Below are positions 1 through 41,439 of a stretch of DNA of 43,478 nucleotides, one piece after another (within the stretch, counting starts at the first letter, position 1; the number at the start of each line of letters is the position of its first letter). The notes below the pieces were generated by a model. The model was not told where the DNA came from. It saw only the letters and a list, made by a program, of their open reading frames with translations, and made no database searches. Source of the stretch: a virus (taxonomy: Duplodnaviria; Caudoviricetes); IMG/VR virus record IMGVR_UViG_3300048578_000426, positions 1 through 43,478 of that record; one strand, written 5' to 3'. The position numbers were made by a program, and so were the translations under genes.

Positions 1-2247
1 ATGGCCTACGTCAAGAAGCTTTTCGACGAGAATTTCCTCTTTTACGCCTCCTACGTCATCAAGGACCGCGCGATACCCGACCTCGAGGACGGCCTCAAGC
101 CGGTCCAGCGGCGCATCCTCCACTCCCTCTTCGAGATGGACGACGGCAAGTTCCACAAGGTCGCGAACGTGGTCGGCCACTGCATGCAGTACCACCCCCA
201 CGGCGACCAGTCCATCTACTCGGCCCTCGTCGTCCTCGCGAACAAGGAACTCTTCATCGACAAGCAGGGGAACTTCGGCAACCTCTACACCGGCGACGAA
301 GCCTCGGCGCCCCGCTACATCGAGTGCAGGGCCAAGCCCCTCGCCAAGGATATCTTCCACAACCCCAAGATCACCGAGTTCGTGGATTCCTACGACGGCC
401 GCCACCAGGAGCCCGTGGCCTTCCCCGCCAAGCTGCCCGTCATCCTCCTCACGGGGGCCGAAGGCATCGCCGTCGGCATGAGCACGAAAATCCTCCCCCA
501 CAATCCCCTCGAGGTCATCAAGGCCGAGATCGCCTGCCTCCGCGGCAAGGGCTTCGAGCTCTATCCGGACTTCCCCACGGGCGGCATCGCGGACGTCGCG
601 GAATACGCCGACGGCATGGGCAAGGTCCGGGTGCGCGCCAAGCTCGACACCTCGGACCCGAAGCGCATAGTTGTGAGGGAACTGCCCTTCGGCTCCACGA
701 CGGAGAGCCTCATCGAGAGCGTCGAGGCGGCGGCCAAGGCCGGACGCATCAAGATAGCGGGCATCAGCGACTTCACCACGGACAAGGTCGAGATCGAGAT
801 CAAGCTCCAGCGCGGCGTCTACGCCGAGGAGGTCATCGACTCGCTCTACGCCTTCACCGAGTGCGAGTCCTCCCTCTCCTGCAACTTCCTCGTCATCCAG
901 AACGGCCTCCCGGTCCAGACCACCGTGGAGGAAGTCGTGCGCTACCACTCGAAGCGCCTCCTCGGCATCCTCAAGTCCGAGCTGCAGATCGAGGAGGGCG
1001 AGCTCCTCGACGAGATCCACGCGCGCACCCTCGAACGCATCTTCATCGAGGAGCGCGTCTACAAGCTGATCGAGAACAAGAAGAGCATGGAGGGAGTGCA
1101 GAAGGCCGTCCTCGACGGGCTCGCCCCCTTCCGCAAGGAGATCGGCCGCGACGTCACCCTCGAGGACGTCGAGCGCCTCCTCAAGATCCCGATCCGCCGC
1201 ATCTCGCTCTACGACATCGAGAAGGCCAAGTCCGAGATGGACAAGCTTCTCGCCCAGCTCAAGGAGGTCCGCAAGCACCTCGCCCACCTCACCGACTACG
1301 CCGTGGCCTGGCTCGAGGGCATCGCGAAGCGCCTCGAGCCCGATTGGGCGCGCAAGACCGAGCTCAGGCGCTTCACCCTCGTGGACGCCAAGGAGGTCGC
1401 GAAGCGCGACCTCGCCCTCCGCTACGACGGCCAGTCCGGCTACCTCGGCACGAGCGTCTCCACGGGGGAGAGCCGCCTCCAGGTCTCGAGCTTCGACAAG
1501 GTCCTCTTCCTGCGGCGCTCGGGCATCTGGTCCGTCGTCCCCGTCCCCGAGCGCCTCTTCGTCGACCAGGGCCTCCTCTACTGCGCCATCGCGGAGAAGG
1601 AGTCCCTCGCTGACAAGATATTCACAATTGTGTATAGCGACGCGGAGACCGGCTATCCCTGCATCAAGCGCTTCCAGATCGAGGGCTGGATCATGAACAA
1701 GGACTATCCCCTCCTCCCCGATGGCGCCCAGGTCCTCTGGTTCAGCTCGGCATCCTCCTCGCCCTTCACCCTCAAGTACGAGCCCAAGCCCCGCCAGAAG
1801 GTGAAGTCCGAGGCCTTCCGCATCGAGGACTTCGAGGTGAAGGGCATCAAGGCCAAGGGCGTGAGGCTCGCCTCCCAGGAATGCGCGGCCGTCCTCGCTC
1901 CCGAGCCCGTCGCTGATGCGGCCGGCGCCGAGGCTCCCGGCCTTTTCGATGAGGCGGCACGGGCGCCGAGGGGCCAAGCCTCCCAGAAGTCCGCGCCGGC
2001 CGGCAAGAAGAAAGCCGCTGAACAGCCGACGGGCTCGAAGGAAAGGACCGGGAAAGGCTCCGCAAAGGCCGAGAAGACCTCAAAAACTACAAAAGCCGGT
2101 TCGGGCGGTCTCCTCGCCGCGGCCGAGAAACTCGCGTCCGGAAAGGCTAAGGCGGTAAAGAAGACGGCTGCCGCAAAAATTGTGGCAGGGAAGAGCCCGG
2201 CCAAGGCGGCCGCAACCCCGAAAAAGGCCGGCGGCAAGAAAAAGTGA
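1..2247 (+). CDS. parC: DNA topoisomerase IV subunit A (GyrA/ParC family) with Lys/Ala-rich C-terminal tail
   Basis: Motifs YASYVIKDRAIP, DGLKPVQRR, YHPHGD and catalytic SAPRY; short C-terminal domain with no GyrA-box seen; high-GC host codon usage. Confidence 0.9.
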   Translation: MAYVKKLFDENFLFYASYVIKDRAIPDLEDGLKPVQRRILHSLFEMDDGKFHKVANVVGHCMQYHPHGDQSIYSALVVLANKELFIDKQGNFGNLYTGDEASAPRYIECRAKPLAKDIFHNPKITEFVDSYDGRHQEPVAFPAKLPVILLTGAEGIAVGMSTKILPHNPLEVIKAEIACLRGKGFELYPDFPTGGIADVAEYADGMGKVRVRAKLDTSDPKRIVVRELPFGSTTESLIESVEAAAKAGRIKIAGISDFTTDKVEIEIKLQRGVYAEEVIDSLYAFTECESSLSCNFLVIQNGLPVQTTVEEVVRYHSKRLLGILKSELQIEEGELLDEIHARTLERIFIEERVYKLIENKKSMEGVQKAVLDGLAPFRKEIGRDVTLEDVERLLKIPIRRISLYDIEKAKSEMDKLLAQLKEVRKHLAHLTDYAVAWLEGIAKRLEPDWARKTELRRFTLVDAKEVAKRDLALRYDGQSGYLGTSVSTGESRLQVSSFDKVLFLRRSGIWSVVPVPERLFVDQGLLYCAIAEKESLADKIFTIVYSDAETGYPCIKRFQIEGWIMNKDYPLLPDGAQVLWFSSASSSPFTLKYEPKPRQKVKSEAFRIEDFEVKGIKAKGVRLASQECAAVLAPEPVADAAGAEAPGLFDEAARAPRGQASQKSAPAGKKKAAEQPTGSKERTGKGSAKAEKTSKTTKAGSGGLLAAAEKLASGKAKAVKKTAAAKIVAGKSPAKAAATPKKAGGKKK

Positions 2248-2540: not shown

Positions 2541-3836
2541 ATGTCCCGTTATCGCCTATTTCCACGTGATCTCAAGGCAAAGGATGGCTCTAGCTCAAGG
2601 GTCTGGTACTACGAGTATCTTGGGCCTGATGGTGGACGCGTTAGGCGCTCGACCGGCTACACCCGGAAACGCGATGCTGAGGATTTCATCGAGTCCCTTG
2701 ATGCCCAGGACGAGGCGGAAGAGGAGCGAGCGAAGACCCCCTCGCGGCCGCGGGCCCGTCTCCGCGAGGTCGCTGATCCCATGTTCAAGGCGGATTCCGC
2801 ACACATCAAGCGCTGGGCGCAGAAGGGGCGCAAGCTCGTCGCTCACACCATCGAGCAGCACCGACGCTGGATCGACCTCTTCATCATGCCGAAGTGGGGC
2901 GAAGTCTGGTGCGATGAGATCACCGGTCCCGCCATTGAGGATTGGCTTATCACCCTCACGAGCTCGACGAACGAGAAGCGCGGCCGTGGGCCCGGCCTCG
3001 CGAACACGACGAAGAACGGCATCGGGCGGACCATGGGCCTCATCCTCACGGAGGCGAAGCGAGCGGGATACATCGACCAGGTGCCGGAGCTCGAGCTCTT
3101 CGAACGCAACTCCCAGAAGAAGGATATCGTCCTCGACGCGGAACTCGAGAAGCTCTTCCCCGAGTGTCCCGCTGCGCTTTCTCTCGTTTGGATGCGGCGG
3201 CCGAACCGGAATCGCGACGCGGAAGGCACTGATATCGGGCTCATGTTCGGGGCCCTCTTTGCGCTCGCTGTCTCCGCCGGCCTAAGGCCGGGGGAGGCGA
3301 GGGCCCTCCATGTTGACCAGCTCTATCGCGACGCCGGCGGCATTATCGTGGACCGGGCCTATGATACCGATGGCACCCTGGGAGCTCCCAAGAAATCGAA
3401 GGCCGGGGATCCGCGTTTCCGGGTGTCGTTTGTCCCTGAGAGGACCTGGAAAATCATTGACCTCTGGCTCAAGCATAGGAAAGCCCCCGAGGATCATCCT
3501 GGGCTACTCTTCCCCTTTCATGGCAAGCCAATCTCATCCTTCTTCTTGAACGAACGCTTTGGAGTTGGTCTCGAAAATGCAGAAATTCCGACAACAGGGC
3601 GGATCCTGTCGCCGCACTCACTAAGGTATACCTACGATACAAAAATGCGAAGCGTCCTCTCCGGCGATGTTCTCCGCGAGTTTATCGGCCACCGCTCGGA
3701 GGCGATGACCGACCATTATGATCGGGCGAGCCTGCGGCCGGTCCTCGAGATGAGGCTATTCCAGCTTGAGGATCAACGTCCCCTTGTCGAACAGTTCTGG
3801 GTGTCTCCTAAGCTTAGCTGTTCGCTGTCGGAATAG
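2541..3836 (+). CDS. int: Tyrosine recombinase / phage integrase
   Basis: Catalytic motifs GLRPGE, K (PKK), HSLR, GH and Y (TDHY); N-terminal arm-binding-like WYYEY..RRSTG; RBS GAGGAGG before ATG 2541; adjacent to att. Confidence 0.93.
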   Translation: MSRYRLFPRDLKAKDGSSSRVWYYEYLGPDGGRVRRSTGYTRKRDAEDFIESLDAQDEAEEERAKTPSRPRARLREVADPMFKADSAHIKRWAQKGRKLVAHTIEQHRRWIDLFIMPKWGEVWCDEITGPAIEDWLITLTSSTNEKRGRGPGLANTTKNGIGRTMGLILTEAKRAGYIDQVPELELFERNSQKKDIVLDAELEKLFPECPAALSLVWMRRPNRNRDAEGTDIGLMFGALFALAVSAGLRPGEARALHVDQLYRDAGGIIVDRAYDTDGTLGAPKKSKAGDPRFRVSFVPERTWKIIDLWLKHRKAPEDHPGLLFPFHGKPISSFFLNERFGVGLENAEIPTTGRILSPHSLRYTYDTKMRSVLSGDVLREFIGHRSEAMTDHYDRASLRPVLEMRLFQLEDQRPLVEQFWVSPKLSCSLSE

Positions 3837-4680
3837 ATAAGTTGTCGCAAAAGAACATTATTTCGGATCCTTCACCGGAACTATGGGCGCTATAATGGAT
3901 TGAGTATGATCGATTGTGACAATTATGATATAGTGCCCTTATCTCCGGTACATTGTCGTAGCTGACCATCCAGTTGTGTTTCAGGGTTCGCACCCGAGCA
4001 GCCAAATCAGCATGGTCTTCTTGGCGGTAAAAATTCTGATAGAGATCTCCGCCTTTTACATAGTATGGTGGATCAAGATATATGAGAGACTTTTCTGGTA
4101 TTTTCTTTTCTATCTCGTCAAGAAATTTTACTGCATCCATGTTATAAAGGTGAATACACTCAGAAAAATATGCGATCTTGTGTATGCGACTGATTATGTC
4201 TTCTTTGTTGAAGCGTGCATCAATTTTATAAGTGCCAGTCTGGTCTAGGCCACCAATTACTCCACCATTTATGATACCTGATCTATTTGTTCTATTTAGG
4301 AAAAGGAAAGAAAACCCTAAATCAATGGAGTACGGGTCTCGCCCTTTCTTAACGACTTCCTTGTGTTTTTTCCATTCTTTTATGGTGATATCAGTGTTCC
4401 TGATTTTTTCGCATAATTCTTCAGGTGCCGACTTCACTGCATTCCAGAAAGCATGGACTGCAGGATCAATATCATTGAGATGTATTTCATAGGCATACCC
4501 CGAGATAAGCAGCTCTAGGGCGATCCCTGCTCCTCCTGCGAAAGGTTCAACATAATGCCCGTCAATAAGTTCATTTTCTTTTAGTAAAGATTTGAGGAAA
4601 GGGGACAATTTCCCCTTTCCTCCTGGATACCTAAGTGGTGTATAGAGAGAGCGAGTTGTCGTCATGTTGCTAGTATACAT
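3814..4680 (-). CDS. D12-class (Dam-like) N6-adenine DNA methyltransferase
   Basis: TPLRYPGGK, YVEPFAGGAG (SAM binding) and YLDPPYY (catalytic); low GC. Confidence 0.92.
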   Translation of the reverse strand: MYTSNMTTTRSLYTPLRYPGGKGKLSPFLKSLLKENELIDGHYVEPFAGGAGIALELLISGYAYEIHLNDIDPAVHAFWNAVKSAPEELCEKIRNTDITIKEWKKHKEVVKKGRDPYSIDLGFSFLFLNRTNRSGIINGGVIGGLDQTGTYKIDARFNKEDIISRIHKIAYFSECIHLYNMDAVKFLDEIEKKIPEKSLIYLDPPYYVKGGDLYQNFYRQEDHADLAARVRTLKHNWMVSYDNVPEIRALYHNCHNRSYSIHYSAHSSGEGSEIMFFCDNLSIPTANS

Positions 4681-4703
4681 GCATTATCTGAGGTCGGCCA
4701 GCC

Positions 4704-6050
4704 CTAAACGTTAGATTCACCAATATGGACAAAATATGGCTCTAGCATTGTCCATATTCTTATTAGGTCCTTCTTTTCAGGGAAGAAATCCTTGTTGTGA
4801 ACGCATTGATGTAAAGTGTCATATGACAACATCTGGTCCTTGTTTGATACAAGCTTTCGCAAGGCTGTTATTTGCGATTTTTCAAGATATGCATGAGACT
4901 CAAGATAGTTAATTACTGAATTCCAATCTGCATCCCAGCGCCCTTGTACTCCAGAAACTTTTGGGACTCCTTTTTTCTTGGCATATAAATAGGTGCTCAT
5001 CTCGAGGAATGCCCTTAGGAGCATGGATGCCGAGTTGGTATATCTATCTATGTCTAGATGACGTAATTCAACTATCATACACATGATTCTATTGTTGGAG
5101 CAGTTAAACTTGAACTCTTTTGTTATAAGCGTTTTTCTTTCTAGGGGATTCTTCGTGGTAGTGCGTTTTCCCGAAGCTGCAGATTTTGCTTCTTTCCGTA
5201 AATCGATTAAGGGGACTTCTGGACGACTATCACTTCCTGTTGGTAGATCAGGTTCTATGCTTTTAATATATGCTGCTCTTTTAGCTTTGTTTTTAATTAT
5301 GTCGACTGTAGCACCACCATGAAAATCTTTTACAATTTTGGCAAGTGCTTTTTTTAGGGCATCAAAGCTCACAGTTGCTTTCAACTGGCCTTTTTCAAAC
5401 TTTAAGCCAAGAGCAGAACGCGAAGCTTCATCATCTAGGAGGCGCTCTATGTTCGTGAACATGTTTTTTTCTTGGTAAAGCTTTGCAATTTCTGGTGTGT
5501 TTTCTTTCATCCAGTCAATGAGCTGCAGGGTTCTGTCTGGCGTTCCAATTGTATTCGCCAAGAAACGGCGCTGCTGTTCGGTATCCCAACTCGAGACTCC
5601 GACTCCATCATTTGATCCGGTATGACGTTCCTGTATCCAGCTATTGGCCTCAGCCCTTTTTGAAACTACAAAACAGGTTATCTCTTTGGGAATAGCAGCG
5701 CCGTTGGATAAACGCTCGAATGAAGATTTAAATTCCGTGGGAACTCGACTCGGATCAATCAGCCCCATAATGCAGGCTAAGCGTCGATTCCCTTCGAGTA
5801 CTATGTACCACTCATCTTCGGGAACGACAATCATCAACTGAGTAGGGTTTAGGCCATTTTTTGCAATATCAGCGGCTAATTTCGTCATCTTTATTTTCTC
5901 ACTATCAAATAGCTTACGACTAGCCTCAACTTGATCGACTGAGCGGTCAAATCTTGGGTTAGCCGTATCGAGTTTTAACTTATGAATCGGGATTAGTTGT
6001 GGTTCTTTGGTACTGACAATCTTGGGAAGCGTACTCTTTTTAGGGGTCAT
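4704..6050 (-). CDS. ParB/Srx-like N-terminal domain plus putative HEPN-like C-terminal domain; likely defence effector
   Basis: LKLDTANPRF and YIVLEGNRRL (ParB-like); NSASMLLRAFLE and LHQCVH (HEPN-like); 23 bp upstream of the methyltransferase, same strand. Confidence 0.65.
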   Translation of the reverse strand: MTPKKSTLPKIVSTKEPQLIPIHKLKLDTANPRFDRSVDQVEASRKLFDSEKIKMTKLAADIAKNGLNPTQLMIVVPEDEWYIVLEGNRRLACIMGLIDPSRVPTEFKSSFERLSNGAAIPKEITCFVVSKRAEANSWIQERHTGSNDGVGVSSWDTEQQRRFLANTIGTPDRTLQLIDWMKENTPEIAKLYQEKNMFTNIERLLDDEASRSALGLKFEKGQLKATVSFDALKKALAKIVKDFHGGATVDIIKNKAKRAAYIKSIEPDLPTGSDSRPEVPLIDLRKEAKSAASGKRTTTKNPLERKTLITKEFKFNCSNNRIMCMIVELRHLDIDRYTNSASMLLRAFLEMSTYLYAKKKGVPKVSGVQGRWDADWNSVINYLESHAYLEKSQITALRKLVSNKDQMLSYDTLHQCVHNKDFFPEKKDLIRIWTMLEPYFVHIGESNV

Positions 6051-7484: not shown

Positions 7485-7802
7485 GTTTTTTTCTGGCCTG
7501 ATTTATTCCCTAATAATTATTGCAGATAGAGTTCATCTTTGAGGAAACTGGATTATCCGACAGTTTCCTGCTGGCCTTGTGCGCCCGCGTGCCGAGCTGC
7601 CCCGGCGGCGCCATGGATCGCTGCGACGAGCGGCTTCCTGACAGGGGCTTCAAGCTCATCCAGGTCGCCAACAGTCTGACTCTAGAATCCAGCGCCGTCA
7701 AGCGAATTACTACACATTCCCGCATAGACAATTGTCTATGGCGTATTTTTCTCTAATCTTCCGATTATCTCCGAACGGTGAAGTTCGGATTCACCCACAT
7801 TT

Positions 7803-8177
7803 TCAGGCGTTTGCCGTAGCGTCAGCTCTATTGTCCCGCGATGTTTCCGCTGCCGCATGAATTCCTGCAAGCCAAGGGGCCCTGATCGGCTCCTCGAGCT
7901 CGTCGAGGTCCTCGAGGACTGGCCGGTAACGGCGAGCCCTCTCAAGGAGCTGACGGTCGGATACTGAGATTGTTGCGGGTTCCTCGCCGGTTACAAGATA
8001 TTCAACCGTTGTGCCCAAAGTCCGGGCCATTGCCACAGCCTCATTAGCTCGAGGGAGATTCCCTTTGCGGCGGTATGAGTTGTATGCGTCTCGAGAAAGA
8101 CCGGCTGCATTCGCAACAGCTTCAATCGTTGTGCCATGTGTCTTTGCTGACTCTTTTACTCTATCAAACCAATCCAT
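7803..8177 (-). CDS. CI-like prophage repressor (XRE-type HTH)
   Basis: HTH TIEAVANAAGLSRDAYNSYRRKGNLP...LGTTVEYLVTG; divergent from the early operon. Confidence 0.8.
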   Translation of the reverse strand: MDWFDRVKESAKTHGTTIEAVANAAGLSRDAYNSYRRKGNLPRANEAVAMARTLGTTVEYLVTGEEPATISVSDRQLLERARRYRPVLEDLDELEEPIRAPWLAGIHAAAETSRDNRADATANA

Positions 8178-8274
8178 AATCTGATTATCGACTAAAAAAG
8201 TGCTCTATAGGCCACTTTTCGCACTTGACAATGTGGTCCAGGAGACATATACCAATAATCAGGTGTGGTATATG
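8176..8274. promoter_or_regulatory. Immunity region: divergent promoters and candidate operators
   Basis: TTGACA (8225-8230), 17 bp, TATACC (8248-8253) on +; inverted repeats ATAATC-T-GATTAT (8176-8188) and CATATACCA-N11-TGGTATATG (8246-8274). Confidence 0.6.
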
Positions 8275-8322
8275 GGCCACAAAAAAGAAGAAGGAGGCGG
8301 TCATGGACGAGGAGGGCGCGAA

Positions 8323-8610
8323 GTGAGATACGACTTCACCAGCGTGGCACGGGCGTTGGCGTCGGAGGGGCTCGGTCTCGTGAGGATTGAGACTGGGGTG
8401 GAGAACGAGCCAACACGGGCTGTTCTGCATGTCCAGGAGCTTGATCCCGTCTCCTTGCCCGAAGGCTGGCATGGAGAGACGCTGCTCGCAGCGATCTTCC
8501 CCAAGGACTGTTCCCTCGAAGATGCGCTCGAGCAGCTTCGGATCTCGTGGGCTATGCGGGGGTCGCGAACAGGACACCCCCGCAGTTCGAGCACATCTTC
8601 ACCAGCATGA
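8323..8610 (+). CDS. Hypothetical early protein
   Basis: GTG start with GGAGG RBS; first sizeable rightward ORF. Confidence 0.5.
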   Translation: MRYDFTSVARALASEGLGLVRIETGVENEPTRAVLHVQELDPVSLPEGWHGETLLAAIFPKDCSLEDALEQLRISWAMRGSRTGHPRSSSTSSPA

Positions 8611-8734
8611 ACGGCATCCGGAATTCATCCCATGACGATGGCTCAATCATCTTGACGATGGTCTGGACACATCCACAGCGCGGACAAGCCGGCAACAACA
8701 GGGCCGGCGGTGTCCCTGGTTCATTCGTTTTCAT
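8552..8734 (-). CDS. Small zinc-ribbon protein, antisense to the early operon
   Basis: CPRC...CSNC; ATG 8734 preceded by AGGAAGGA on the minus strand. Confidence 0.45.
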   Translation of the reverse strand: MKTNEPGTPPALLLPACPRCGCVQTIVKMIEPSSWDEFRMPFMLVKMCSNCGGVLFATPA

Positions 8735-8842
8735 TTTGTCCTTCCTAGGGGCAAGGGTGGGACTCCGTACGGAGCTCGCTTCGCTGCGCCCATTCTGAGC
8801 CTCAGGAAGGGCATTTAGCAAGGTACGAATTGTGAGGAGGGC

Positions 8843-9064
8843 GTGATGGATGGAGTGAAGATCGAATCGAGGAAGGAGCGCTACGCCCGCTATGAACGCG
8901 AGCGGATGGGGCGCGTTGAGCGATTCTCCTTCACCCTCTCCCACGACGAGGCCGCGCGGTTCCGGGCCTGTCTCCTGGCGACGGGGCGTAAGTGCTCCCC
9001 CTGGGTGCAGACGCTCGTGATGACCGCCGTTGCCGCCGAGGAAGCGAAGACCGGGGTGGCGTGA
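8843..9064 (+). CDS. Small DNA-binding protein, possibly ribbon-helix-helix
   Basis: GAGGAGG RBS; beta-strand RFSFTL followed by two predicted helices. Confidence 0.55.
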   Translation: MMDGVKIESRKERYARYERERMGRVERFSFTLSHDEAARFRACLLATGRKCSPWVQTLVMTAVAAEEAKTGVA

Positions 9065-9402
9065 TGGAGGGACAGGGCGAGAGGTTCGTGCTCCCGGTTC
9101 AGGTCCGTGGTGAGTGGACAGAGCCCCGGGACGGAATTCGCGAGCTCTTTACGCCCGGCTTGCCGGTACGCCAGTGGCGCCTTCGGCCAGTTCTGCAGGT
9201 GCCCACGGCCCCCGTGCCGTCGGGCCAGCACGGAAGATTTTAAGATGCGAGGCATGGATATGGATAGGGAAAATGAAGTGGTGTTGGCCGGGAGCATCCT
9301 GGCAATTGTGACAGATCACCGGGGAGCGGATCTGCGTGTGACGTGGAGGTTGTTGGCCCTTCCTCCTGCGTCCGGTATGGTGCGCCTCACGGGAGTTCTA
9401 TC

Positions 9403-9885
9403 ATGAGCGACAACCTTCAGACTGAGTCTGCCGTTCCTTCCGAGCCGCTCCCCGCGGCCGGCGGGCCGGTCCCCTATCCCTCGATCGTCCTGGACCTTCC
9501 GCAGCTCGCACGCCTTGAGCGGATGCTCGAGGCAGCGCTCGAGGGGCGTGGCGGCCAGGCCTGGTACACCCTTGAGCAAGCCTGGCGGCGAAAGTTCGCG
9601 AGCTCCGCCGGCGTGGAGGGGGCCATCTCCCTGTCGTCGATCAAGATGGACATGGCGCTCCAGCCGCGTGGGGGAGTCCCTGATGGCTGGCAGTCGAATC
9701 GCAAGGTGTGGAAAGAGGAATCCGTCGAAGAGTGGTGCCTCGTCGATGATGGGCACCTCGAGGAGTACCTCAAAAAGCACAACCCGAACCGCCGTGTCCC
9801 AGCGCGAATCAAGGAGAAGCTCGCGGCTCGGGTGCCCGTGGTTCGAATGTCGGCCGCGCGAGCGCCGAAGAAAGGGGCAGAGTGA
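9403..9885 (+). CDS. Hypothetical protein, possibly excisionase/AlpA-like winged HTH
   Basis: WYTLEQA...RKVWKEESVEEW pattern resembles Xis-like domains; GGAG RBS. Confidence 0.5.
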   Translation: MSDNLQTESAVPSEPLPAAGGPVPYPSIVLDLPQLARLERMLEAALEGRGGQAWYTLEQAWRRKFASSAGVEGAISLSSIKMDMALQPRGGVPDGWQSNRKVWKEESVEEWCLVDDGHLEEYLKKHNPNRRVPARIKEKLAARVPVVRMSAARAPKKGAE

Positions 9886-10163
9886 TGCACGATGGGATGC
9901 GTTCTTCCCGGCGAAGGATGAGCATCGAGCGCCTCGCGCTCTGCCATGTCGCCACCATGGGACATGGATACGCCCGGGCGGACGCCCAGGCCGTGGTCTA
10001 CCTCGACGAGGTCGAGGGGCTCTCCTTCGGGACGACCTTCTTCGAGACCCTCCTCCTCAATGCCTCGAGGCTCGACCTCTACGAGGAAACGCCCAAGGTC
10101 CAGTATCTCGGCGCCGAGGCGAACGAGCTCCGGCATTTCGATGCGGTGAGGAGGGGCGCATGA
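9882..10163 (+). CDS. Hypothetical phage protein
   Basis: Translationally coupled ORF with phage codon usage; start may be 9918. Confidence 0.6.
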   Translation: MMHDGMRSSRRRMSIERLALCHVATMGHGYARADAQAVVYLDEVEGLSFGTTFFETLLLNASRLDLYEETPKVQYLGAEANELRHFDAVRRGA

Positions 10164-10564
10164 ACACGAGAGAAGAGCGCAGCCACATCCGCCTGTGGAT
10201 CACGACCAGGGAGGGAGCGTGCCGGGCGAAGGTGACCTGTCCTTTCTGCGGGACGGTGGTCTGGACGAGCGACATGACGCTCTGCTTCCACGGTAAAACC
10301 TGCCCGACCTGTGGCGCCTGGCACGGGCCTTTCGAGACCTCGCTCGCTCCGACGGAGAAATCCGCGGCGCGGGCGGCTAAACGCGCGGAGAAGGCGAGGA
10401 CGGAGGCCGCGGCCAAGATGACGCCGCGAACGGCGCAGCCTCGCGCGATGAAGCCGGTGCAGTCGAATCGTAGCGGCGGGAAGCGGCGGCCTCGTCCAGC
10501 GAGCATCGCCACTCCCGAAGCCCTGGCATTCGCTCGGGAGATGGGGCTGGGAGATCTTACATGA
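10160..10564 (+). CDS. Zinc-finger hypothetical protein
   Basis: CPFC...CPTC; ATG 10160 with GAGGAGG RBS, overlapping the previous stop. Confidence 0.65.
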   Translation: MNTREERSHIRLWITTREGACRAKVTCPFCGTVVWTSDMTLCFHGKTCPTCGAWHGPFETSLAPTEKSAARAAKRAEKARTEAAAKMTPRTAQPRAMKPVQSNRSGGKRRPRPASIATPEALAFAREMGLGDLT

Positions 10565-10845
10565 AGGGGCGGGAGTTCGTTATCCACGTTGAAGGGAATG
10601 TGCTCATCGAGGCCCCGAACGAGTTCGAGGCGCAACGGGTGATTTCCGAGCTGTGGTTCTCGCATCGGGCCCGGGGAAGCTCGACGTTGGGACGCTGGGA
10701 AGCTGAAGGTCAGGCCCATGCGAGCACCGCTGTTGTGCGCGAGATCCTAGCATCTCCTGCGATCGAGCCGGTCATAAAGGTCGCCCCGCCTCCTCCCGAG
10801 CGGCGGTATAGCCGCTCGCCGGATCCTGACCTGGAGCTTTTCTGA
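10561..10845 (+). CDS. Hypothetical phage protein
   Basis: ATGA-coupled ORF. Confidence 0.55.
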   Translation: MKGREFVIHVEGNVLIEAPNEFEAQRVISELWFSHRARGSSTLGRWEAEGQAHASTAVVREILASPAIEPVIKVAPPPPERRYSRSPDPDLELF

Positions 10846-10978
10846 TGGGCCCCATGATTTGCCATTGCGCCCGCTGTCGGGGCCGCGGGGGGCTGGGGAA
10901 GGTCCGCTGCACGATCTGGAGCATGAATGGTCGGCCGAGGATCATCCTCAATTGCCGGTTTTATCAGGAGATAGAGTG

Positions 10979-11158
10979 ATGGACCCGACGGCAATCCCTC
11001 AGTGGAAGATAGAAGCGCAACGCTATCTACTCTTGGATCGCATCATGGAAGCGGTCCAGGGCGAGTTCGACTACGCCATCGCGCGAGGCGACTACGACGA
11101 GGACATGACGGTACGGCTGCGCAAACAGATCGACGAGATTCTCGATGGAAGGTTTTAG
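10979..11158 (+). CDS. Small hypothetical protein
   Basis: AGGAG RBS before ATG 10979. Confidence 0.55.
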   Translation: MDPTAIPQWKIEAQRYLLLDRIMEAVQGEFDYAIARGDYDEDMTVRLRKQIDEILDGRF

Positions 11159-11389
11159 GTGAGCCGATCGCCCTACCGGACCTGCGACCTGTGCCGGCAT
11201 TTCCTCAGGACCGCCGGCCGTGATATCTGCCGGCTCCCGGGGCATCGCCATCCCGTTCGCCCGGGATCGGGCTGCGGCTTTTTCGCCGCGCAGACTGATG
11301 AAGTGGAAGGGCGGATCAGAGCCCTTGAGATAGAGAGGTATTCCCCGAAGATGCAGTTGAAGATCCGGCCAGGGCGGGCACTGTTCTAG
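11159..11389 (+). CDS. Small Cys-rich hypothetical protein
   Basis: TCDLCRHF...C...CGFF motif; abuts the previous stop. Confidence 0.55.
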   Translation: MSRSPYRTCDLCRHFLRTAGRDICRLPGHRHPVRPGSGCGFFAAQTDEVEGRIRALEIERYSPKMQLKIRPGRALF

Positions 11390-11544
11390 TCCTGGCACAA
11401 CAAACCTCCCCCAAGAGGGTATATACGGCCCGGCCTGGCGGTACCAGGCATCTCGTCCCGGCGAGTCTTCCGGGATTTTTTCGGCGTTCCAGGCGCGTTG
11501 TGCGACAAGGTCCGTCCTCCGCGGATGGTCGCGCAGCCCGGAGA

Positions 11545-11620
11545 GGCCTTGTCGTTCAGGGGTTCCGGACATGGCTCCTGACCGTCTGCCAGATGTCGGG
11601 TTCGAATCCCGGCAGCGCCA
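11545..11620 (+). ncRNA. tRNA-like element with aberrant anticodon arm (pseudo-tRNA or tRNA mimic)
   Basis: Acceptor GGCCTTG/CAGCGCC+A (one mismatch), D stem GTTC/GGAC, T arm TCGGG-TTCGAAT-CCCGG; anticodon arm is only TGGC/GCCA around a 12-nt loop. Confidence 0.65.
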
Positions 11621-11679
11621 TCTTGTTGTGGCAACTCCGGCGGCTTCACGCCGGGAACTTGGTGAGAAGGGAGATACGC

Positions 11680-12234
11680 ATGGTCAAGCAGTACAGGAAG
11701 AAGCCTGTCGTCATCGAGGCGGTTCAGTTCGACGGCACGAACGCGGAGGAGATATTTAAAAGCTTCTACCGCCCGACAGATGAGCCTTGGACCGGAGACG
11801 GGACGATCAAGATCCGGACCCTCGAGGGAGTTCTTGAAGCATCCGCAGGGGACTTCATCATCCGCGGGGTCAAGGGCGAACTGTATCCCTGCAAGCCCGA
11901 CATCTTCGAGAAGACCTACGAAGCCGTCGAGGCGACGGGCTGCGCCATGCCCAATCAGTTCGGTTTCGCTTTCGCCCTCCAGCTCCTCAAGGCCGGCAAG
12001 AAGGTTCGCCGGTTCGGATGGAACGGGAAGGGCATGCACCTGGCGTATATGCCCGGCTACCCCGAGGGCGTCCCCGCGAATGGAGCCGCCGCCGCGGCCC
12101 TCGGTGTCCCCGAGGGAGAAATCATCCATACGAGACCCTATATCGCCATGAAGGACGCCCAAGGCTACCTGGTGACCGGCTGGCTGGCTTCCCAGACGGA
12201 CCTCCTGGCTGAGGACTGGGAACTCGTCGACTAG
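11680..12234 (+). CDS. Two-domain fusion: RKKPVVIEA/PGDYG-like domain plus DUF2829 (Tad2-like); candidate anti-defence sponge
   Basis: N half YRKKPVVIEAVQF..TLEG..GDFIIRGVKGELYPCKPDIFEKTY; C half FALQLLKAGKKVRRFGWNGKGM..GWLASQTDLLAEDW. Confidence 0.75.
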   Translation: MVKQYRKKPVVIEAVQFDGTNAEEIFKSFYRPTDEPWTGDGTIKIRTLEGVLEASAGDFIIRGVKGELYPCKPDIFEKTYEAVEATGCAMPNQFGFAFALQLLKAGKKVRRFGWNGKGMHLAYMPGYPEGVPANGAAAAALGVPEGEIIHTRPYIAMKDAQGYLVTGWLASQTDLLAEDWELVD

Positions 12235-12245
12235 AAGGAACAAGT

Positions 12246-12596
12246 ATGGACAAACCACGAGCAACCTTGACGACGATTGCGGGGGGGCAGGCTGTAGTCC
12301 TTTTCAACCGCGAACTGGAGACGGTGCTGGAGAACATCGCCGACCCTCGGACGAAGCCGGACGTCGTGAGGAAGATCACGCTGACGGTTGTATTCCGGCC
12401 AGATGAGGAGCGACACGCGACCGATGTCCGGATCGAGTGTACGTCGAGTCTCCCGAAGCACTACGGGGCCAAGGGCCTCGCCTACATCGGCATCAATGAC
12501 GGCGAGGTCGGGATTTTCAATTCCGACCCCAAGCAGCTTTCGCTCGCGGACGAACTTGCCGCGGCGCAGGAAAGGAAGGTGGGAAATGGAAGCTGA
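12246..12596 (+). CDS. Conserved phage protein (first of a YfdP/YfdQ-like pair)
   Basis: GGQAVVLFNRELETVLENIADPRT..RKITL motif, recalled from temperate phages; overlaps the next gene. Confidence 0.6.
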   Translation: MDKPRATLTTIAGGQAVVLFNRELETVLENIADPRTKPDVVRKITLTVVFRPDEERHATDVRIECTSSLPKHYGAKGLAYIGINDGEVGIFNSDPKQLSLADELAAAQERKVGNGS

Positions 12597-13344
12597 TCTC
12601 ACGAAGCAGGTCATCGAGAAAATCGAGGATCTCACCAAGAAGGCGAATGCGAAGGAGAACCGAGTCCTCGAGATCGGGGGGAAGCCTTACGATCGAGAGA
12701 CGTTGCAGCGGATCTACGACAAGGACGAATGCACCCCGAGGACCATCGAGGTATCTTCCCTCGAATCCATCGCGGACTACTGGAACAAGATCGCGGGAGT
12801 GGAGGGCGTCACCAGGGAGAACCTTTTCCTGCTCATCGAGAGTCCGACCCGCGTCGTGCTCATGGAGAAATTCAAGGGTGAACAGAAGAAGCGGGAGGGC
12901 ATCATGGCGGCCGTCCTCAAGAACGACGTCGAGCCCTTCCCCTTCGGCAAGTTCATCGAGACCGAGGAGTTCATCATCGGTCTCATGTCGCGCTTCAACG
13001 CCCAGGGCGATCGGGACACCATCGTGAGCATCGCGAGCGGACTGGTCGCCGAGGCGAAGCTCGACAACAAGGACAGCGGCACTACGACCAAGAGGACGGC
13101 CTCGGCGGGTGTGGTGAATCAGAGCGGCATCGGGGACAAGAACGTGCCCGTTCTCGCTCCGTTCAGGACATTCCGCGAAGTCGAGCAACCCCAGAGCGCC
13201 TTCCTTTTCCGCTACAGGACGGACGGCGAGAAAATCGGATGCGCTCTTTTCGAGGCCGATGGCGGCGCCTGGCGCCATGACGCGATGGCGAACATCGCAA
13301 GCTTCTTTGCAGAGCACGCTTCGGGGCTTCCTGTTCTGAGGTAA
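12586..13344 (+). CDS. Conserved phage protein (DUF2303/YfdQ-like)
   Basis: LAPFRTFREVEQPQSAFLFR..ALFEADGGAW motif; ATG 12586 with GGAAGG RBS. Confidence 0.6.
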   Translation: MEADLTKQVIEKIEDLTKKANAKENRVLEIGGKPYDRETLQRIYDKDECTPRTIEVSSLESIADYWNKIAGVEGVTRENLFLLIESPTRVVLMEKFKGEQKKREGIMAAVLKNDVEPFPFGKFIETEEFIIGLMSRFNAQGDRDTIVSIASGLVAEAKLDNKDSGTTTKRTASAGVVNQSGIGDKNVPVLAPFRTFREVEQPQSAFLFRYRTDGEKIGCALFEADGGAWRHDAMANIASFFAEHASGLPVLR

Positions 13345-13394
13345 TTACGAAGGCCCCTTCGGGGGCCGTGCGTGAGAGGAAAGAGGGAGTGCAC

Positions 13395-13568
13395 ATGAAG
13401 TACGAGATCGTCGAGAAGCCCAAGGGCGAACTCTCCGACTATGAGATCCGCATTGAAGGTGCCGGCAAGGGCTCGCCGAAGATCGCGACAGTCTGGGGCC
13501 ATTATGGCACGGATGCCAAGGCGACAGCCGATGAGATCGTTGCCGCGTTGAATAGGGGCATAGCATGA
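13395..13568 (+). CDS. Small hypothetical protein
   Basis: GGGAG RBS; coupled to the next ORF. Confidence 0.55.
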   Translation: MKYEIVEKPKGELSDYEIRIEGAGKGSPKIATVWGHYGTDAKATADEIVAALNRGIA

Positions 13569-13936
13569 GTAAGCCAACAGGCCAGAATCCCGGCGGGCGC
13601 CGCCGTGTCGTCCCTGTGAAGGTCTCGGTGGATGGGAGCCCCTTCGTACGGTATGGCTCCCTCAAGGAGATGGCCCAGGCCCTCGGCGGCGAGCACTGGA
13701 AAGGGCTTTACACACACGCGAGCGGCAGCGGGCGGGCGAAGGTGCTCGTCTACAACAGGCACACCTACAACATCGTGAAGCTCGATCCCGAGATCATCAG
13801 GAGCGCGCCGCCGTCGGCGCCGGCAAAGCCGCTCGGGATCGGGGCTCTTATTCCGAAGGCCGAGGAAATCGAGCGGGCTTCAGGGCCGCTCCTTTCGCAT
13901 CCGAAAACGCATCGCCTCGGGCGATTCTTCGGGTAA
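13565..13936 (+). CDS. Hypothetical protein (possible NUMOD1-like HTH)
   Basis: YGSLKEMAQALG motif; ATGA coupling. Confidence 0.55.
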   Translation: MSKPTGQNPGGRRRVVPVKVSVDGSPFVRYGSLKEMAQALGGEHWKGLYTHASGSGRAKVLVYNRHTYNIVKLDPEIIRSAPPSAPAKPLGIGALIPKAEEIERASGPLLSHPKTHRLGRFFG

Positions 13937-13940
13937 GGCC

Positions 13941-14189
13941 ATGGGCAAGAAGTCGCCTACCATAGAGTTTTCGGTCGATGCCAGGCAGAAGGCGGAGATC
14001 CTGCTTTTCTGCAGTATCCGCGGCTTTGCGAAGCCCGCGGATCTCGCCCGCTTTGCGACGGCGCAGTACATGCGGAGGTACCCTCTGAAATCCGAGGAAA
14101 TCGCCGCATACATGGCGCGAGGAGAAGGAAACACCCAAGGAGGCGAAACGGACGCAAGGGCGGTACAGCCTGAACGCGCGGAAGGGTAA
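13941..14189 (+). CDS. Small hypothetical protein (possible ribbon-helix-helix)
   Basis: Closely follows the previous gene; TIEFSV strand followed by helices. Confidence 0.55.
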   Translation: MGKKSPTIEFSVDARQKAEILLFCSIRGFAKPADLARFATAQYMRRYPLKSEEIAAYMARGEGNTQGGETDARAVQPERAEG

Positions 14190-14194
14190 TTAAC

Positions 14195-14531
14195 GGAGCC
14201 GAAGTGGACGAGTTTCTCCTGAAGGGCGATCCTCCCTGCGCCTTTCAGCGAGGATTCCCCCTCGGGCCGCTGTCGCGGGTCATGCCGCGCGGCTCCATAC
14301 TGGATGCGAAAGAAGCCGGACTCCCAGGCGGTAATGTCAAACCGCCTGAGGGCCCGGCTTCGCGCATCCTGGATGCAATTGTGAATATCGCGCCCAGGAG
14401 AAGGCGCGGGAAAATAACTCGTAGCGGTCCGGCCATGGGGACTTGGTGCCATGGCGTACCGGGGTGCGGCGACAGGCGGGAGCCTGGGGCGCGACGGCGC
14501 TCGAAAGCGGGTTCGAATCCCGTCACCCCGA
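14195..14531 (+). ncRNA. Structured RNA cassette with two tRNA-like folds (14195-14297 and 14460-14531)
   Basis: 7-bp acceptor-like stems GGAGCCG/CGGCTCC+A and CGGGGTG/CACCCCG+A, each directly preceded by a 5-bp arm; the second has canonical GCGGG-TTCGAAT-CCCGT; long hairpin 14302-14369 lies between them. Confidence 0.6.
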
Positions 14532-14553
14532 ATCGTTCTTATAGGAGGGGAGC

Positions 14554-15441
14554 ATGAAACGGCGATTGGATTTCTATACGACTGAGGCCGACGAATGGAA
14601 CGGGCCGGCGGAAAACTTCTTGAGGATCCACTATGGCGGAGAACAGGGCTGGGCCATGGAGGGGCGGTACCGGGCCCTCCTCGGGCTCATCGCGAGGGCG
14701 GACGACTGCCGGCTCGACCTGTGCCGCCCCATCGTGCGTGGGGATGTCAAGAAGAAGCTCGAGCTCGATGATGCCGGCCTCGACGCGTTCATCCGCGTGC
14801 TGGCCGAGGAATGCGAGCTCGTCCTGGTCGTGGGCGGCGTCGTCTCTCGCCCGGAGATCGACGACGACCTCGAGCGCATGGACAAGAAAGCGGCCCGGGG
14901 ACGGGCGGCCGCCGCGGCCAAGTGGAAGGAACGAAAGAAAGGGACGCCTCCTCCCGCACCGGCTTCAGGGGATACCGCTGCGCCTGTTCCCGAGGCTGCC
15001 CGGACCAAGGAACCCGAGCCGACCCCTTCCCGGGCTGCCGGATGCACAAGCAATGCATCTGCAATGCACAAGCAATGCATGAGCAATGCGCATGCAGAAC
15101 CAGACACGAGTGACACGAGTGAGAAGTATTCGTTCACCACGAATACTTCTCACGAGAGTGTCAGAGGGAGAGAGATACCGCGCGCGAAGAGCCATGCTTC
15201 CCCGGCGGGATGTGGACCCGCCGGGGCACATGGCAGGAAGGGAGGTGGCGAGGAAGGGCGGGAGGGGCGCAGGTTCTGGTGTTCGACGGCTCTTCCTGAA
15301 CCGCTGACCCAGGAAGAGCGTCGCGAGCTTGACGGCAAGTTCGCTGCATTCTGGGGCCCTGATTCACTCTTTGGCGCCATCCTTCGGGGCCAACCGACGG
15401 CGCCGATTTTGCAGCGCGGGATGCTTGCGGGCGTGGGGTGA
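14554..15441 (+). CDS. Putative replication initiator / replisome organiser (lambda O-like architecture)
   Basis: N-terminal winged-helix-like region, ARGRAAAAAKWK helix and internal iterons; position before terminases; GGAGG RBS. Confidence 0.6.
   Translation: MKRRLDFYTTEADEWNGPAENFLRIHYGGEQGWAMEGRYRALLGLIARADDCRLDLCRPIVRGDVKKKLELDDAGLDAFIRVLAEECELVLVVGGVVSRPEIDDDLERMDKKAARGRAAAAAKWKERKKGTPPPAPASGDTAAPVPEAARTKEPEPTPSRAAGCTSNASAMHKQCMSNAHAEPDTSDTSEKYSFTTNTSHESVRGREIPRAKSHASPAGCGPAGAHGRKGGGEEGREGRRFWCSTALPEPLTQEERRELDGKFAAFWGPDSLFGAILRGQPTAPILQRGMLAGVG
15042..15122 (+). repeat. Iteron-like repeats, putative phage origin
   Basis: GCAATGC at 15050, 15061, 15072 and 15083 (11-bp period); ATGCACAAGCAATGCAT twice; GACACGAGT twice (15103-15120). 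Confidence 0.65.
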
Positions 15442-15445
15442 GATC

Positions 15446-15952
15446 ATGGGACGGGCATGCGCTATCTGCAATCACGAAAAGCGAAACGAAATCGAAATGG
15501 CCATCCTCGAGGGCACGAGCCACAAGGATATCGCGGAAAAGTACGGGCTTTCCACGACAGGAATCTGGCGCCATCGGACGAATCACATGAGCGTCGAAGC
15601 CCGCGAGGCGATCAACGGCGCTACCCAGGGCAGACTCGACTTGCCCGAACCCTGCAGTCCCGGGAAACAGGAACGGCTCGGACAGACCCTCACGGTGTAT
15701 GACGAATTCCTGGATATTCGCCAGAAGACCATCGAGCTCTACGACAAGGCGGCAACGAGCGGCGAGAAAGGGCGACTGTCCGCCATGGCTTCGGCCCTGA
15801 GCGAGCGGCGGGCGGTGGTCAACGACATGGTGAAGCTGTCCCTTCTCGAGCGCGGGCTTGGCGATGACGGCGACGATGACAAGGGCGACATACGGCAGGT
15901 CTATGACCAGGCCGTCGAGGAGCTCGTGGAAAGGGTGATCGGTGAAAACTAG
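15446..15952 (+). CDS. Putative terminase small subunit
   Basis: CAICNH plus HTH (SHKDIAEKYGLSTTGIWRH); overlaps the large subunit start. Confidence 0.7.
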   Translation: MGRACAICNHEKRNEIEMAILEGTSHKDIAEKYGLSTTGIWRHRTNHMSVEAREAINGATQGRLDLPEPCSPGKQERLGQTLTVYDEFLDIRQKTIELYDKAATSGEKGRLSAMASALSERRAVVNDMVKLSLLERGLGDDGDDDKGDIRQVYDQAVEELVERVIGEN

Positions 15953-17459
15953 GATCGAGGCGAACGAGGCCTACGTCGCGGGCATCAGGCTCGCCCGGGA
16001 AGGGCGCGTCCTCACGGAGTTCCTGCGGGCCCTCGCGCTCCGGGACCTCTTCTTCCTCCTCGTCTACGTGCTCCATCGAGAGGACGCCGACAACGACTGG
16101 TGCTACAAGCAATGCCGGATGGTGCAGGCGGCGCCCGACGGCTACATCGATCTCTGGGCGCGAGGCCATTACAAGAGCACAATCATCACCTTCGCCCTCC
16201 TCATCCAGTCCATCCTCCGGGATCCCGAGGTGACGATCGGCATCTTCAGCCATACTCGTCCGATCGCGAAAGCCTTCATGTCCCAGGTTAAGCGCGAGTT
16301 CGAGGCGAACGAGCTCCTCAAGTCCCTCTTCCCGGATATCCTCTACGCGGATCCGCGGAACGAGTCCCCGACCTGGTCAGAGGACAAGGGCCTCCTTGTG
16401 AAGCGCAAGGGGAACCCGAAGGAGATGACCGTCGAGGCGTATGGTTTGACGGACGGACAGCCGACCTCGAAGCACTTCAGGATCATGAACTATGACGACA
16501 TCGTGACGAAGGAATCGGTGTCGACCCCTGCCATGATCGAGAAAACGACGCAGGCCTGGGCCGAGTCGCTCAACCTCTGCGCGGAGAATGCCACATTCCG
16601 CTACGCGGGGACGCGGTGGCATTTCGCCGATACGAGCTCCGAGATCATCAAGCGCAAGGCGGCCATTGCGCGCGTATTCACGCCCACTGTCGATGGCACC
16701 CTCGATGGGGAGCCGGTACTGTGGTCGCGGGAGACGCTCGCGAAGAAGTGGACCGACATGGGCGCCTTTGTCGCGGCGGCCCAGCTCTTCCAGAATCCGA
16801 AGCTTGAGAACACGGATGGCTTCCTCGAGGGCTGGCTCCAGTACTGGCCGGCACTCACCTACGCGAACATGAACCTCTATCTCCTCTGCGATCCCGCGGG
16901 CGAGAAGAAGGAGTCGAGCGACTACACGGTGTTCATGGTTGTCGGCCTTGGCCCTGATCAGAACTACTACGTCATCACGATGGTCCGGGACCGCCTCTCC
17001 CTCGCGGAGCGGACGAGGGTCCTCTTCAGTCTGCACCAGCAGTACAAGCCCTTGATAACCGGGTACGAGAAATATGGGCTCCAGTCGGATATCGAGCACA
17101 TCCGGAGCGTCCAGGCTCAGACGAACTACCGCTTCGGGATCAAGGAGCTCGGTGGAGCCATGCCCAAGGTCGAGCGTATCAGGCGCCTCGGGCCGAAGTT
17201 CGAGGCCGGTCGGGTCTTCCTTCCCGAGACTTGCGCCCGGGTGAACTACCTCAAGGAACGGGTGGACCTCGTCCAGGCCTTCAGGCAGGAGGAATATCTC
17301 GCGTTCCCGTACAGCGAGCACGACGATATGCTTGATTGCCTCTCGAGGATATTCGATGTTGGGCCGGTCTTCCCCAATGCCGTTGACGCGCTCTCTACCT
17401 TTAGTGAGCGGGAATCGAATCGTGACAATTCGTTTGATCCACTTCGTTTCGGATTATAA
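15942..17459 (+). CDS. Terminase large subunit
   Basis: Walker A-like WARGHYKST, Walker B YDDIV, GTRWH, nuclease CDPA..SDYT and HDDMLD. Confidence 0.92.
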   Translation: MKTRIEANEAYVAGIRLAREGRVLTEFLRALALRDLFFLLVYVLHREDADNDWCYKQCRMVQAAPDGYIDLWARGHYKSTIITFALLIQSILRDPEVTIGIFSHTRPIAKAFMSQVKREFEANELLKSLFPDILYADPRNESPTWSEDKGLLVKRKGNPKEMTVEAYGLTDGQPTSKHFRIMNYDDIVTKESVSTPAMIEKTTQAWAESLNLCAENATFRYAGTRWHFADTSSEIIKRKAAIARVFTPTVDGTLDGEPVLWSRETLAKKWTDMGAFVAAAQLFQNPKLENTDGFLEGWLQYWPALTYANMNLYLLCDPAGEKKESSDYTVFMVVGLGPDQNYYVITMVRDRLSLAERTRVLFSLHQQYKPLITGYEKYGLQSDIEHIRSVQAQTNYRFGIKELGGAMPKVERIRRLGPKFEAGRVFLPETCARVNYLKERVDLVQAFRQEEYLAFPYSEHDDMLDCLSRIFDVGPVFPNAVDALSTFSERESNRDNSFDPLRFGL

Positions 17460-41139: not shown

Positions 41140-41179
41140 AAGGCCCGCGGGGTTGGTTGCCCGCGGGCCTTTCCTTTTT
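41140..41179 (+). terminator. Rho-independent terminator of the late operon
   Basis: AAGGCCCGCGGG / CCCGCGGGCCTT stem followed by TCCTTTTT. Confidence 0.8.
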
Positions 41180-41326
41180 CATGCTTCGGATTATTCTGTC
41201 ATTGACTGTGTCACTGCTTGTTGGTGGGACACCAATTTGTCTATTTGTTTCGTAGCATTTGACATTAGGTGTCAGCCTTTGTTAGCATATGGTCAATATT
41301 TGGCTCTAGAAATTATGGAATCGCCC

Positions 41327-41369
41327 CTGTTAACCACTGGGTCCCTGGTTCGAACCCGGGCGGGGGAGC
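41327..41369 (+). repeat. attR core of the prophage, also the left boundary of a second element
   Basis: Exact copy of 2352-2394. Confidence 0.95.
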
Positions 41370-41397
41370 AAGTTAAGTTCTTACTAGATAAGGTGAT

Positions 41398-41432
41398 AGG
41401 CCCTGGCGATGTCCAGGGCCTTTTGCTTTTTT
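41398..41432 (+). terminator. Terminator after the tRNA 3' fragment (second element)
   Basis: AGGCCCTGG-CGATGT-CCAGGGCCT followed by TTTGCTTTTTT. Confidence 0.75.
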
Positions 41433-41439
41433 CAGGCCC

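Follow-up and report, generated by a model that had tools for sequence, protein, structure and literature searches.

An anticodon-less tRNA-shaped element ahead of a likely prophage replication gene and its possible role as an RNA cut signal

The window analyzed in this study is the whole 43,478-nt stretch of the viral record IMGVR_UViG_3300048578_000426 (Duplodnaviria; Caudoviricetes). As read from its gene content, it is an entire prophage with short host flanks, and we read the prophage as BPP-1-like from its gene families. The prophage lies after a topoisomerase IV/gyrase A gene and a tRNA-Asn gene (2321-2394), and its ends are marked by an att pair, a 43-bp repeat of the 3' part of this tRNA at 2352-2394 and 41327-41369. 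Its genes include an integrase, a divergent HTH repressor (7803-8177), small rightward genes, a terminase, a portal protein, a GP7 capsid protein, and Bbp16. The host is likely a spirochaete, since a gene in the host flank shares 58% identity with a record titled Spirochaetes bacterium and 71% with G111, a genome of the same phylum and the best of 151 genomes searched with this gene. Among five host-kin genomes, RNase P RNA was found in four, RNase Z scored above the cut-off in four, and RNase III was found in all five. In the nearest genome, G111, 42 of 43 tRNAs have no encoded CCA.

The gene at 14554-15441 on the plus strand encodes a protein of 295 aa, likely a replication initiator or organizer with a Lin1244/Lin1753-like N-terminal domain. 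The protein itself had no match in Pfam, PHROG, or NCBIfam. Its N-terminal 130 aa resembled the Lin1244_N, Phage_rep_org_N, and DUF1376 Atlas clusters (scores of 0.93-0.95, TM up to 0.80), and among its 224 relatives at E up to 0.001, two of the 24 aligned members matched Pfam Lin1244_N. Four iteron-like repeats of 8-9 nt with a spacing of 11 nt were also found within the gene (15049-15089, plus strand). From this evidence, the label of replication gene given in the earlier note is likely right. The region 15049-15200, where the repeats are joined by a strong inverted repeat, contains the best 100-nt fold of 7500-16500 (z -5.9) and is a likely replication origin.

Upstream on the same strand lies an 82-aa gene (13941-14189), which marks the syntenic slot in relatives. 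Its product, which by eye we take to be ribbon-helix-helix-like, had no match in family libraries. The two genes are separated by a gap of 364 nt. Neither a sigma-70-like promoter nor a plus-strand terminator-like site was found in 13500-15600, so that the element E2 described below is likely read within the early message. Strong folds (z -3.0 to -4.3) were also observed at 8200-8600, to the right of the repressor gene, as a possible leader structure of the early operon.

The gap ends with a 72-nt tRNA-shaped element without an anticodon, named E2 (14460-14531), which lies on the gene strand 22 nt ahead of the replication gene. Its top half includes a 7-bp acceptor stem with a C1:G72 pair, a discriminator A73, a 5-bp T stem, and a consensus T loop, while the positions of the D and anticodon arms are occupied by a GNRA hairpin and a 6-bp hairpin, both with 4-nt loops. 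No CCA is encoded, and both U8 and a standard D arm are absent. The cloverleaf described in the earlier note was recovered in full as the minimum free energy (MFE) structure, at -40.2 kcal/mol (z -2.83, with one of 200 shuffles equally good). The combination of a 7-bp acceptor and a canonical T arm was found twice in the window, in the tRNA-Asn and in E2, as compared to none in 200 third-order Markov windows. When the top half was set aside, the remaining 40-nt core was more stable than 982 of 1,000 shuffles. In the ensemble, the T stem had a probability of about 0.4-0.8, versus mostly 0.8-1.0 for the other three helices, and the latter fell to 0.3-0.4 in the context of 14440-14560. The T stem competes with an alternative pairing in this model, which ignores tertiary contacts. 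In another data set, made up of four runs with contigs of one study and probably of DNA, one contig spans 14430-14681 with one letter different, which shows only that the junction exists there.

The earlier note had proposed checks with ARAGORN and Rfam, and E2 was called neither by ARAGORN nor by the Rfam scans at gathering thresholds. Its best match in the Rfam tRNA clan was tRNA-Sec, with 18.1 bits (E 5.1) against a cut-off of 47. A tRNA-Sec would have an 8-bp acceptor, a UCA anticodon, and a long variable arm, and this identity was rejected from the score, the 7-bp acceptor, and the absent anticodon. Of the features of a canonical tRNA, the acceptor and the T arm were present, while the 5-bp anticodon stem with its 7-nt loop and the D arm were not. 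Judged by its structure, E2 cannot decode because the 7-nt anticodon loop is absent, in agreement with what had been expected of it.

Comparisons with tRNAs of the host kin pointed to proline. A covariance model of E2 had five matches in 42 genomes of the G111 family, four of them tRNA-Pro(TGG) and the fifth a weak match with three broken pairs. Over the 32 top-half positions, tRNA-Pro(TGG) was the best among the G111 tRNAs with 26 identities, where the runner-up had 24 and the median was 20; this set included 43 of the 44 tRNAs, one being left out for a T loop that could not be parsed. The residues C1, G72, and A73 occurred together only in the three tRNA-Pro among the 43 host-kin tRNAs. The C1:G72 pair is described as unique to tRNA-Pro and as read by ProRS and ProXp-ala (PMC10164551). 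Two of the tRNA-Pro identity features, C1:G72 and A73, were present, while the NGG anticodon was absent along with the anticodon loop. Bacterial tRNA-Pro (RF00005) also shares with E2 the 7-bp acceptor, the 5-bp T stem, and the T loop, and it differs in U8, in the standard D arm, and in the anticodon loop that a 4-nt loop replaces in E2. The acceptor stem carries two two-sided changes relative to the host-kin tRNA-Pro, and it is identical to that of the phage tRNA-Pro genes in the viral records L006 and L009. These changes may therefore stem from the donor and are no proof of selection. The likeness of the D segment to tRNA-Pro was not significant (73 of 1,000). Taken together, the comparisons suggest that E2 was likely derived from a proline tRNA.

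The strongest fold of the gap is a 68-nt interrupted hairpin at 14302-14369 on the plus strand (z -8.42), with a pair probability of 0.98-1.0 in every context; its 100-nt window ranked second of 180 over 7500-16500. It presumably resembles RNase III sites known from early T7 RNA, and it is a candidate RNase III site. Two 7-bp hairpins follow on the same strand, at 14388-14409 and 14432-14455, with pair probabilities of 0.77-0.96. The former has an 8-nt loop complementary to 14214-14221 with borderline significance, and the latter, which stops 4 nt short of the predicted RNase P site, would close off the upstream RNA at its 3' end. All three hairpins had been described before and were borne out, and the region 14380-14460 as a whole folded no better than shuffles (z -0.38).

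A second cloverleaf had been proposed for 14195-14297 on the plus strand, here named E1. The 7+5 bp stack exists, and E1 folded alone had a z of -3.28. However, the loop on its 5-bp stem is a non-consensus loop of 6 nt and not a T loop, and the MFE structure has a single long irregular arm in place of two, with the two-arm version 8-10 kcal/mol worse and the second arm at a probability of 0.05-0.09. The acceptor helix was also dependent on context: its probability was 0.98 for E1 alone and 0.73 with the next hairpin, but fell to 0.14 when the whole gap was folded and to 0.01 once upstream sequence was included, and in the whole-gap fold 14195-14214 paired with 14416-14430 instead. This geometry is common by chance, with 2.16 occurrences per simulated window (25 simulations) versus four in the real window, while the chance of one falling in this gap was estimated from the simulated rate at below 1%. 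For an anti-Shine-Dalgarno loop in E1, the best complements were 8-9 nt and none lay at an evident start. An 11-nt complement between 14302-14312 and 13892-13902 was judged by estimate to be due to chance. For E2, the data support a mimic of the tRNA top half on the gene strand, and the GNRA loop in a replacement arm favors an RNA from the plus strand; for E1, a tRNA mimic is not established.

The gap is also spanned by an open reading frame of 117 codons (14204-14557, plus strand), which the earlier note had raised as a caveat. The frame exists, and it is probably not a gene. Its G+C by codon position is flat (0.65/0.63/0.64), and its codon score of -0.14 falls under the 5th percentile for 111 windows in true frames, though above off-frame windows. 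No relatives were found at E up to 1, and the frame is absent from the gene-call collection in which both flanking proteins are present. Were it translated as a leader with coupling to the replication gene, the folds would be side effects or aids of the coupling. In favor of this, its stop overlaps the replication-gene start, and its GTG has a weak Shine-Dalgarno-like 4-mer ahead of it. We assign this possibility a very slight probability in view of the codon statistics and the searches above, and it would also leave the canonical T loop unexplained. The gap was therefore treated as non-coding, as it probably is.

No orthologue of the gap cassette was found in any search. Among viral contigs, a first pattern scan returned 16 loci, all of them tRNAs, a second returned none, and a third returned four, which were three tRNAs and one unrelated tetraloop tRNA shape. 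A blastn search of phage records returned only a 24-nt match to the T arm, and a BLAST search of 301 genomes of the order returned weak matches in 67, of which the 20 examined were short and had no tRNA-like context. In the 42 family genomes, the E2 model found nothing beyond the four tRNA-Pro and the weak match given above. Relatives of the terminase were located at 22 viral loci and 11 genome loci, and neither the replication gene nor the cassette was present in the DNA examined around them, and word-based protein searches returned only the replication and 82-aa proteins of the window.

The replication-gene family was found at 29 loci (14 viral, 6 metagenomic, and 9 in 401 genomes), which are at most 27 distinct ones because one prophage accounts for L082, L096, and L102. 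In none of these distinct loci, several of which have short flanks, did a T-arm element immediately precede the replication gene. The closest prophage, L111, has five genes in common with the early region of the window and carries two open reading frames in the cassette slot. In all three relatives with the upstream 82-aa gene, a gene and not the cassette comes directly after it. As relatives run the same genes without the cassette in this slot, the synteny marks the cassette as an accessory, movable piece, and by its sequence E2 is a real but unconserved, singleton example.

A second tRNA shape with a broken anticodon arm, E3 (11545-11620, plus strand), lies in the same operon and scored 23.4 bits with the Rfam tRNA model (cut-off 29). 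The D and T arms of E3 are kept, the anticodon loop is enlarged to 10-12 nt, the acceptor has one C-C mismatch, and the core folded no better than shuffles (416 of 1,000). The element is 59 nt ahead of a Tad2-like gene starting at 11680 and is preceded by a terminator-like hairpin with a U run at about 11456-11482. The protein of this gene (11680-12234, plus strand) has a phrog_419-like N half fused to a C half like the Thoeris anti-defence protein Tad2, and the two halves are separate genes in L054/L104 and L111.

Similar elements are occasional in relatives, being found in early-operon gaps at two of the at most 27 loci. The 7+5 stack of the L111 element (10766-10854) is perfect, its T loop is a variant, and a bulky branched arm takes the place of the anticodon arm. 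This element is located 15 nt ahead of a start codon and 1.6 kb upstream of the replication gene, at the end of a hairpin-rich 290-nt gap (10581-10869, the same in L082 and L096). Its core folded only marginally better than shuffles (60 of 1,000). In alanine tRNAs, the G3:U70 pair is the identity rule, and this pair is absent from the L111 element, which ARAGORN names Ala. The L085 element (2250-2351, z -5.05) has two long hairpins along with its acceptor and canonical T arm, and it lies 650 nt upstream of the replication gene. Within 2225-2600, it is followed by folded non-coding sequence of about 245 nt and by a terminator-like hairpin. When 29 whole viral records were searched with a strict T motif, eight matches were obtained, versus six for a reversed control pattern; the eight comprised four tRNAs, an att-like remnant, the L085 element, a bare T hairpin, and a poor match.

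These analogues are likened to E2 by shape only, and their intact top halves are partly built in by the T-arm search that found them. An alignment of E2, E3, and the two relatives' elements was poor. The analogues have different acceptor sequences and discriminators and do not share the proline identity, which fits the shape mattering more than the amino-acid identity. The series E3, L111 element, E2, and L085 element suggests a route by which a phage tRNA gene may become a processing signal through loss of the anticodon arm. Support for the earlier claim that E2 was selected and not decayed comes from these analogous elements and from the stable replacement arms (18 of 1,000 shuffles as good as the core).

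Other tRNA-like shapes were observed in the course of the searches. A full tRNA cloverleaf with a GAAA tetraloop as its anticodon loop is part of a tRNA cluster in an unrelated phage (L167, 1471-1545). The phage L158, which has the same replication-gene family, carries a bare T-loop hairpin (about 1480-1540, minus strand), possibly with a short acceptor helix, that lies about 14 nt ahead of a start codon. In L172, a folded gap of about 230 nt (about 2080-2310) separates an SSB-like gene from a possible replication gene, and a T arm was not found there.

Among known systems, E2 would work, by analogy, most like the t-elements of plant mitochondria. These are non-canonical cloverleaves with a conserved T-arm motif upstream of coding sequence (Forner et al., 2007; PMC1920247), where a proposed cut by RNase Z and RNase P gives the message its 5' end and the freed element gains CCA-like tails (PMC1920247). 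Both have the T-arm motif in a non-canonical cloverleaf on the sense strand and adjoining coding sequence. The t-elements belong to a plant organelle and have mapped ends, whereas E2 belongs to a bacterial prophage and is known from sequence alone. C4 RNA of P1/P7, CI RNA of P4, and M3 RNA are, like E2, structured non-decoding RNAs in the early transcript of a temperate phage (PMC11143913, PMC4919922, PMC3632133), and a host tRNA enzyme that cuts out the phage RNA is named for C4 and M3 (PMC11143913, PMC4919922). Non-decoding RNase P substrates are thus already known from phages. In contrast to these RNAs, the T arm of E2 is a true one and its acceptor is of the tRNA-Pro type, and no Rfam C4 or IsrK match was found for it. 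C4 and CI RNAs carry unpaired antisense segments complementary to targets both upstream and downstream, and such loops with flanking targets are absent from E2. Y RNAs, including YrlA, have a tRNA-like module with a T arm, and one member is described as cut by RNase P and CCA-tailed (PMC4201824). Unlike in that system, no Ro60 gene was present among the 47 open reading frames scanned, and E2 had no Rfam Y RNA match. Finally, mascRNA/menRNA (RF01684) resemble E2 as a small tRNA-like tail behind a larger folded RNA, but they are vertebrate nuclear RNAs, and E2 had no match to the family. The scores of E3 and the L085 element with RF01684 were 21-23 bits versus a cut-off of 42.5.

With moderate confidence, E2 is interpreted as a t-element-like cut signal in the early polycistronic message of the prophage, likely from a proline tRNA. 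A 7-bp acceptor stem is described as a main determinant for RNase P (PMC4201824, PMC11143913), while RNase Z contacts the acceptor stem and the T arm and not the D arm or the anticodon loop (PMC7479834). In CCA-less precursors, the RNase Z cut comes after the discriminator, C residues immediately downstream hinder the enzyme, and the archaeal enzymes tested required the 5' end to be mature (PMC7479834). The bases that follow E2 are A-U-C, with no C directly next to the discriminator. E2 keeps what RNase P and RNase Z read, which counts for a cut signal. The processing-signal idea of the earlier note thus fits both the anatomy of E2 and the enzymes of the host kin, and the cut itself is a prediction of the model.

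According to this model, E2 would be transcribed as part of the rightward early operon, and RNase P would cut before C14460, so that the upstream RNA would end just past the hairpin at 14432-14455. RNase Z would then cut after A14531, giving a replication message with a 22-nt leader (14532-14553, plus strand) as its 5' end and an intact ribosome-binding site (Shine-Dalgarno at 14543-14548). The cuts would release the 72-nt RNA, probably CCA-tailed, together with a structured RNA no longer than about 265 nt, a possible target of RNase III at the 68-nt hairpin. They would also make the lifetime of the replication message independent of that of the upstream genes. The predicted RNA ends are precise, at 14460 and 14532. 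The energy for opening the ribosome-binding region was 7.5-9.2 kcal/mol before the cuts and 7.2 kcal/mol after them. As ribosome access changes by only 0.3-2 kcal/mol, the effect is likely on message lifetime and release of the upstream RNA and not on translation. Cutting as a switch that turns on translation was considered for both E2 and the L111 element and was not supported for either. If the cuts occur, a stripped-down tRNA serves the phage as punctuation of its early message, as in plant mitochondria, and the cut falls directly ahead of the replication gene. In the literature covered, most of it outside subscription journals, no report was found of anticodon-less tRNA shapes punctuating phage mRNA.

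It is also conceivable, though unlikely, that E2 is a relic of a phage tRNA-Pro with its lower half scrambled or replaced, maybe still cut and not kept for function. The top-half identities, the four tRNA-Pro among the five model matches, and the acceptor stem shared with L006 and L009 are all in line with such a relic, as are the three syntenic relatives that lack the cassette in the same slot. Additionally, E3 resembles an ordinary decaying tRNA, and neither its core nor that of the L111 element stood out clearly against shuffles. Decay is less easily reconciled with all 12 top-half pairs and the T loop being intact while the lower half is not recognizably tRNA-like. The lower half has moreover re-formed two full hairpins, which a single replacement event could still explain.

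A function in trans, where the freed and CCA-tailed 72-nt RNA would be a decoy for readers of the acceptor end or the T arm, is quite unlikely. The proposed targets are a tRNA-tail nuclease, a toxin modifying 3' ends, or proline-specific factors such as ProRS and ProXp-ala, for which E2 has the C1:G72 pair and A73. Cas12a3 is described as binding the T arm, the acceptor stem, and the CCA tail without need of the other loops (PMC12851939), and the prophage carries other conflict genes, among them the Tad2-like gene and a PD-Lambda-5-like defence pair. This pair (3814-6050, minus strand) consists of a 448-aa protein like PADLOC PD-Lambda-5_A (E 1e-103) and a D12-class adenine methyltransferase. 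On the other hand, a single copy without its own promoter would make a poor sponge when set against the pool of tRNAs, and the proline identity is not common to the analogues. The decoy suggested in the earlier note is unlikely for defences that cut the anticodon, as E2 has no anticodon loop, and leaves the acceptor-end and T-arm readers as possible targets. The broader proposal that spirochaete prophage early operons carry interchangeable anticodon-free tRNA look-alikes, cut and CCA-tailed by the host and with E2 as a decoy, is held to be just as doubtful. If the decoy were real, it would be an RNA counter-defence immune to anticodon nucleases and wearing a tRNA-Pro acceptor identity.

The possibility that the gap is an RNA immunity or attenuation module of the C4/CI type, in which processed E1 and not E2 would pair with sites on both sides of it in the nascent transcript and so control read-through into the replication gene, is regarded as improbable. 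Besides the precedent of C4 and M3 as phage RNase P substrates (PMC11143913, PMC4919922), such a module would account for the two-block complementarity of E1 (14208-14221) to 14395-14402 and 14416-14422 and for a 9-nt repeat at 14120 and 14396. The MFE structure of 14190-14460 likewise has a long-range pairing that breaks the E1 acceptor helix, giving two competing folds. The complementarity was borderline, however, being equaled in 60 of 2,000 shuffles downstream and 1,911 of 2,000 upstream, and other sites in the window scored equal or higher. No C4, c4-a1b1, or IsrK match was found at E up to 10, and 13500-15600 has no plus-strand terminator. E2 itself has no unpaired stretch of more than 7 nt, and none of ten loops tested matched both sides beyond chance.

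An integration scar or a chance fold is barely credible for E2 and largely ruled out: prophages do leave tRNA 3' halves, as here at 41327-41369, but the true att pair is the tRNA-Asn repeat, no 5' acceptor strand lies within 200 nt of its attR copy, unlike in E2, and the E2 shape was absent from the 200 simulated windows. As a separate observation, a second integrase (in the 41153-42754 reading frame) and an HTH_17 gene were found past attR, which suggests that this tRNA is also the site of a second element.
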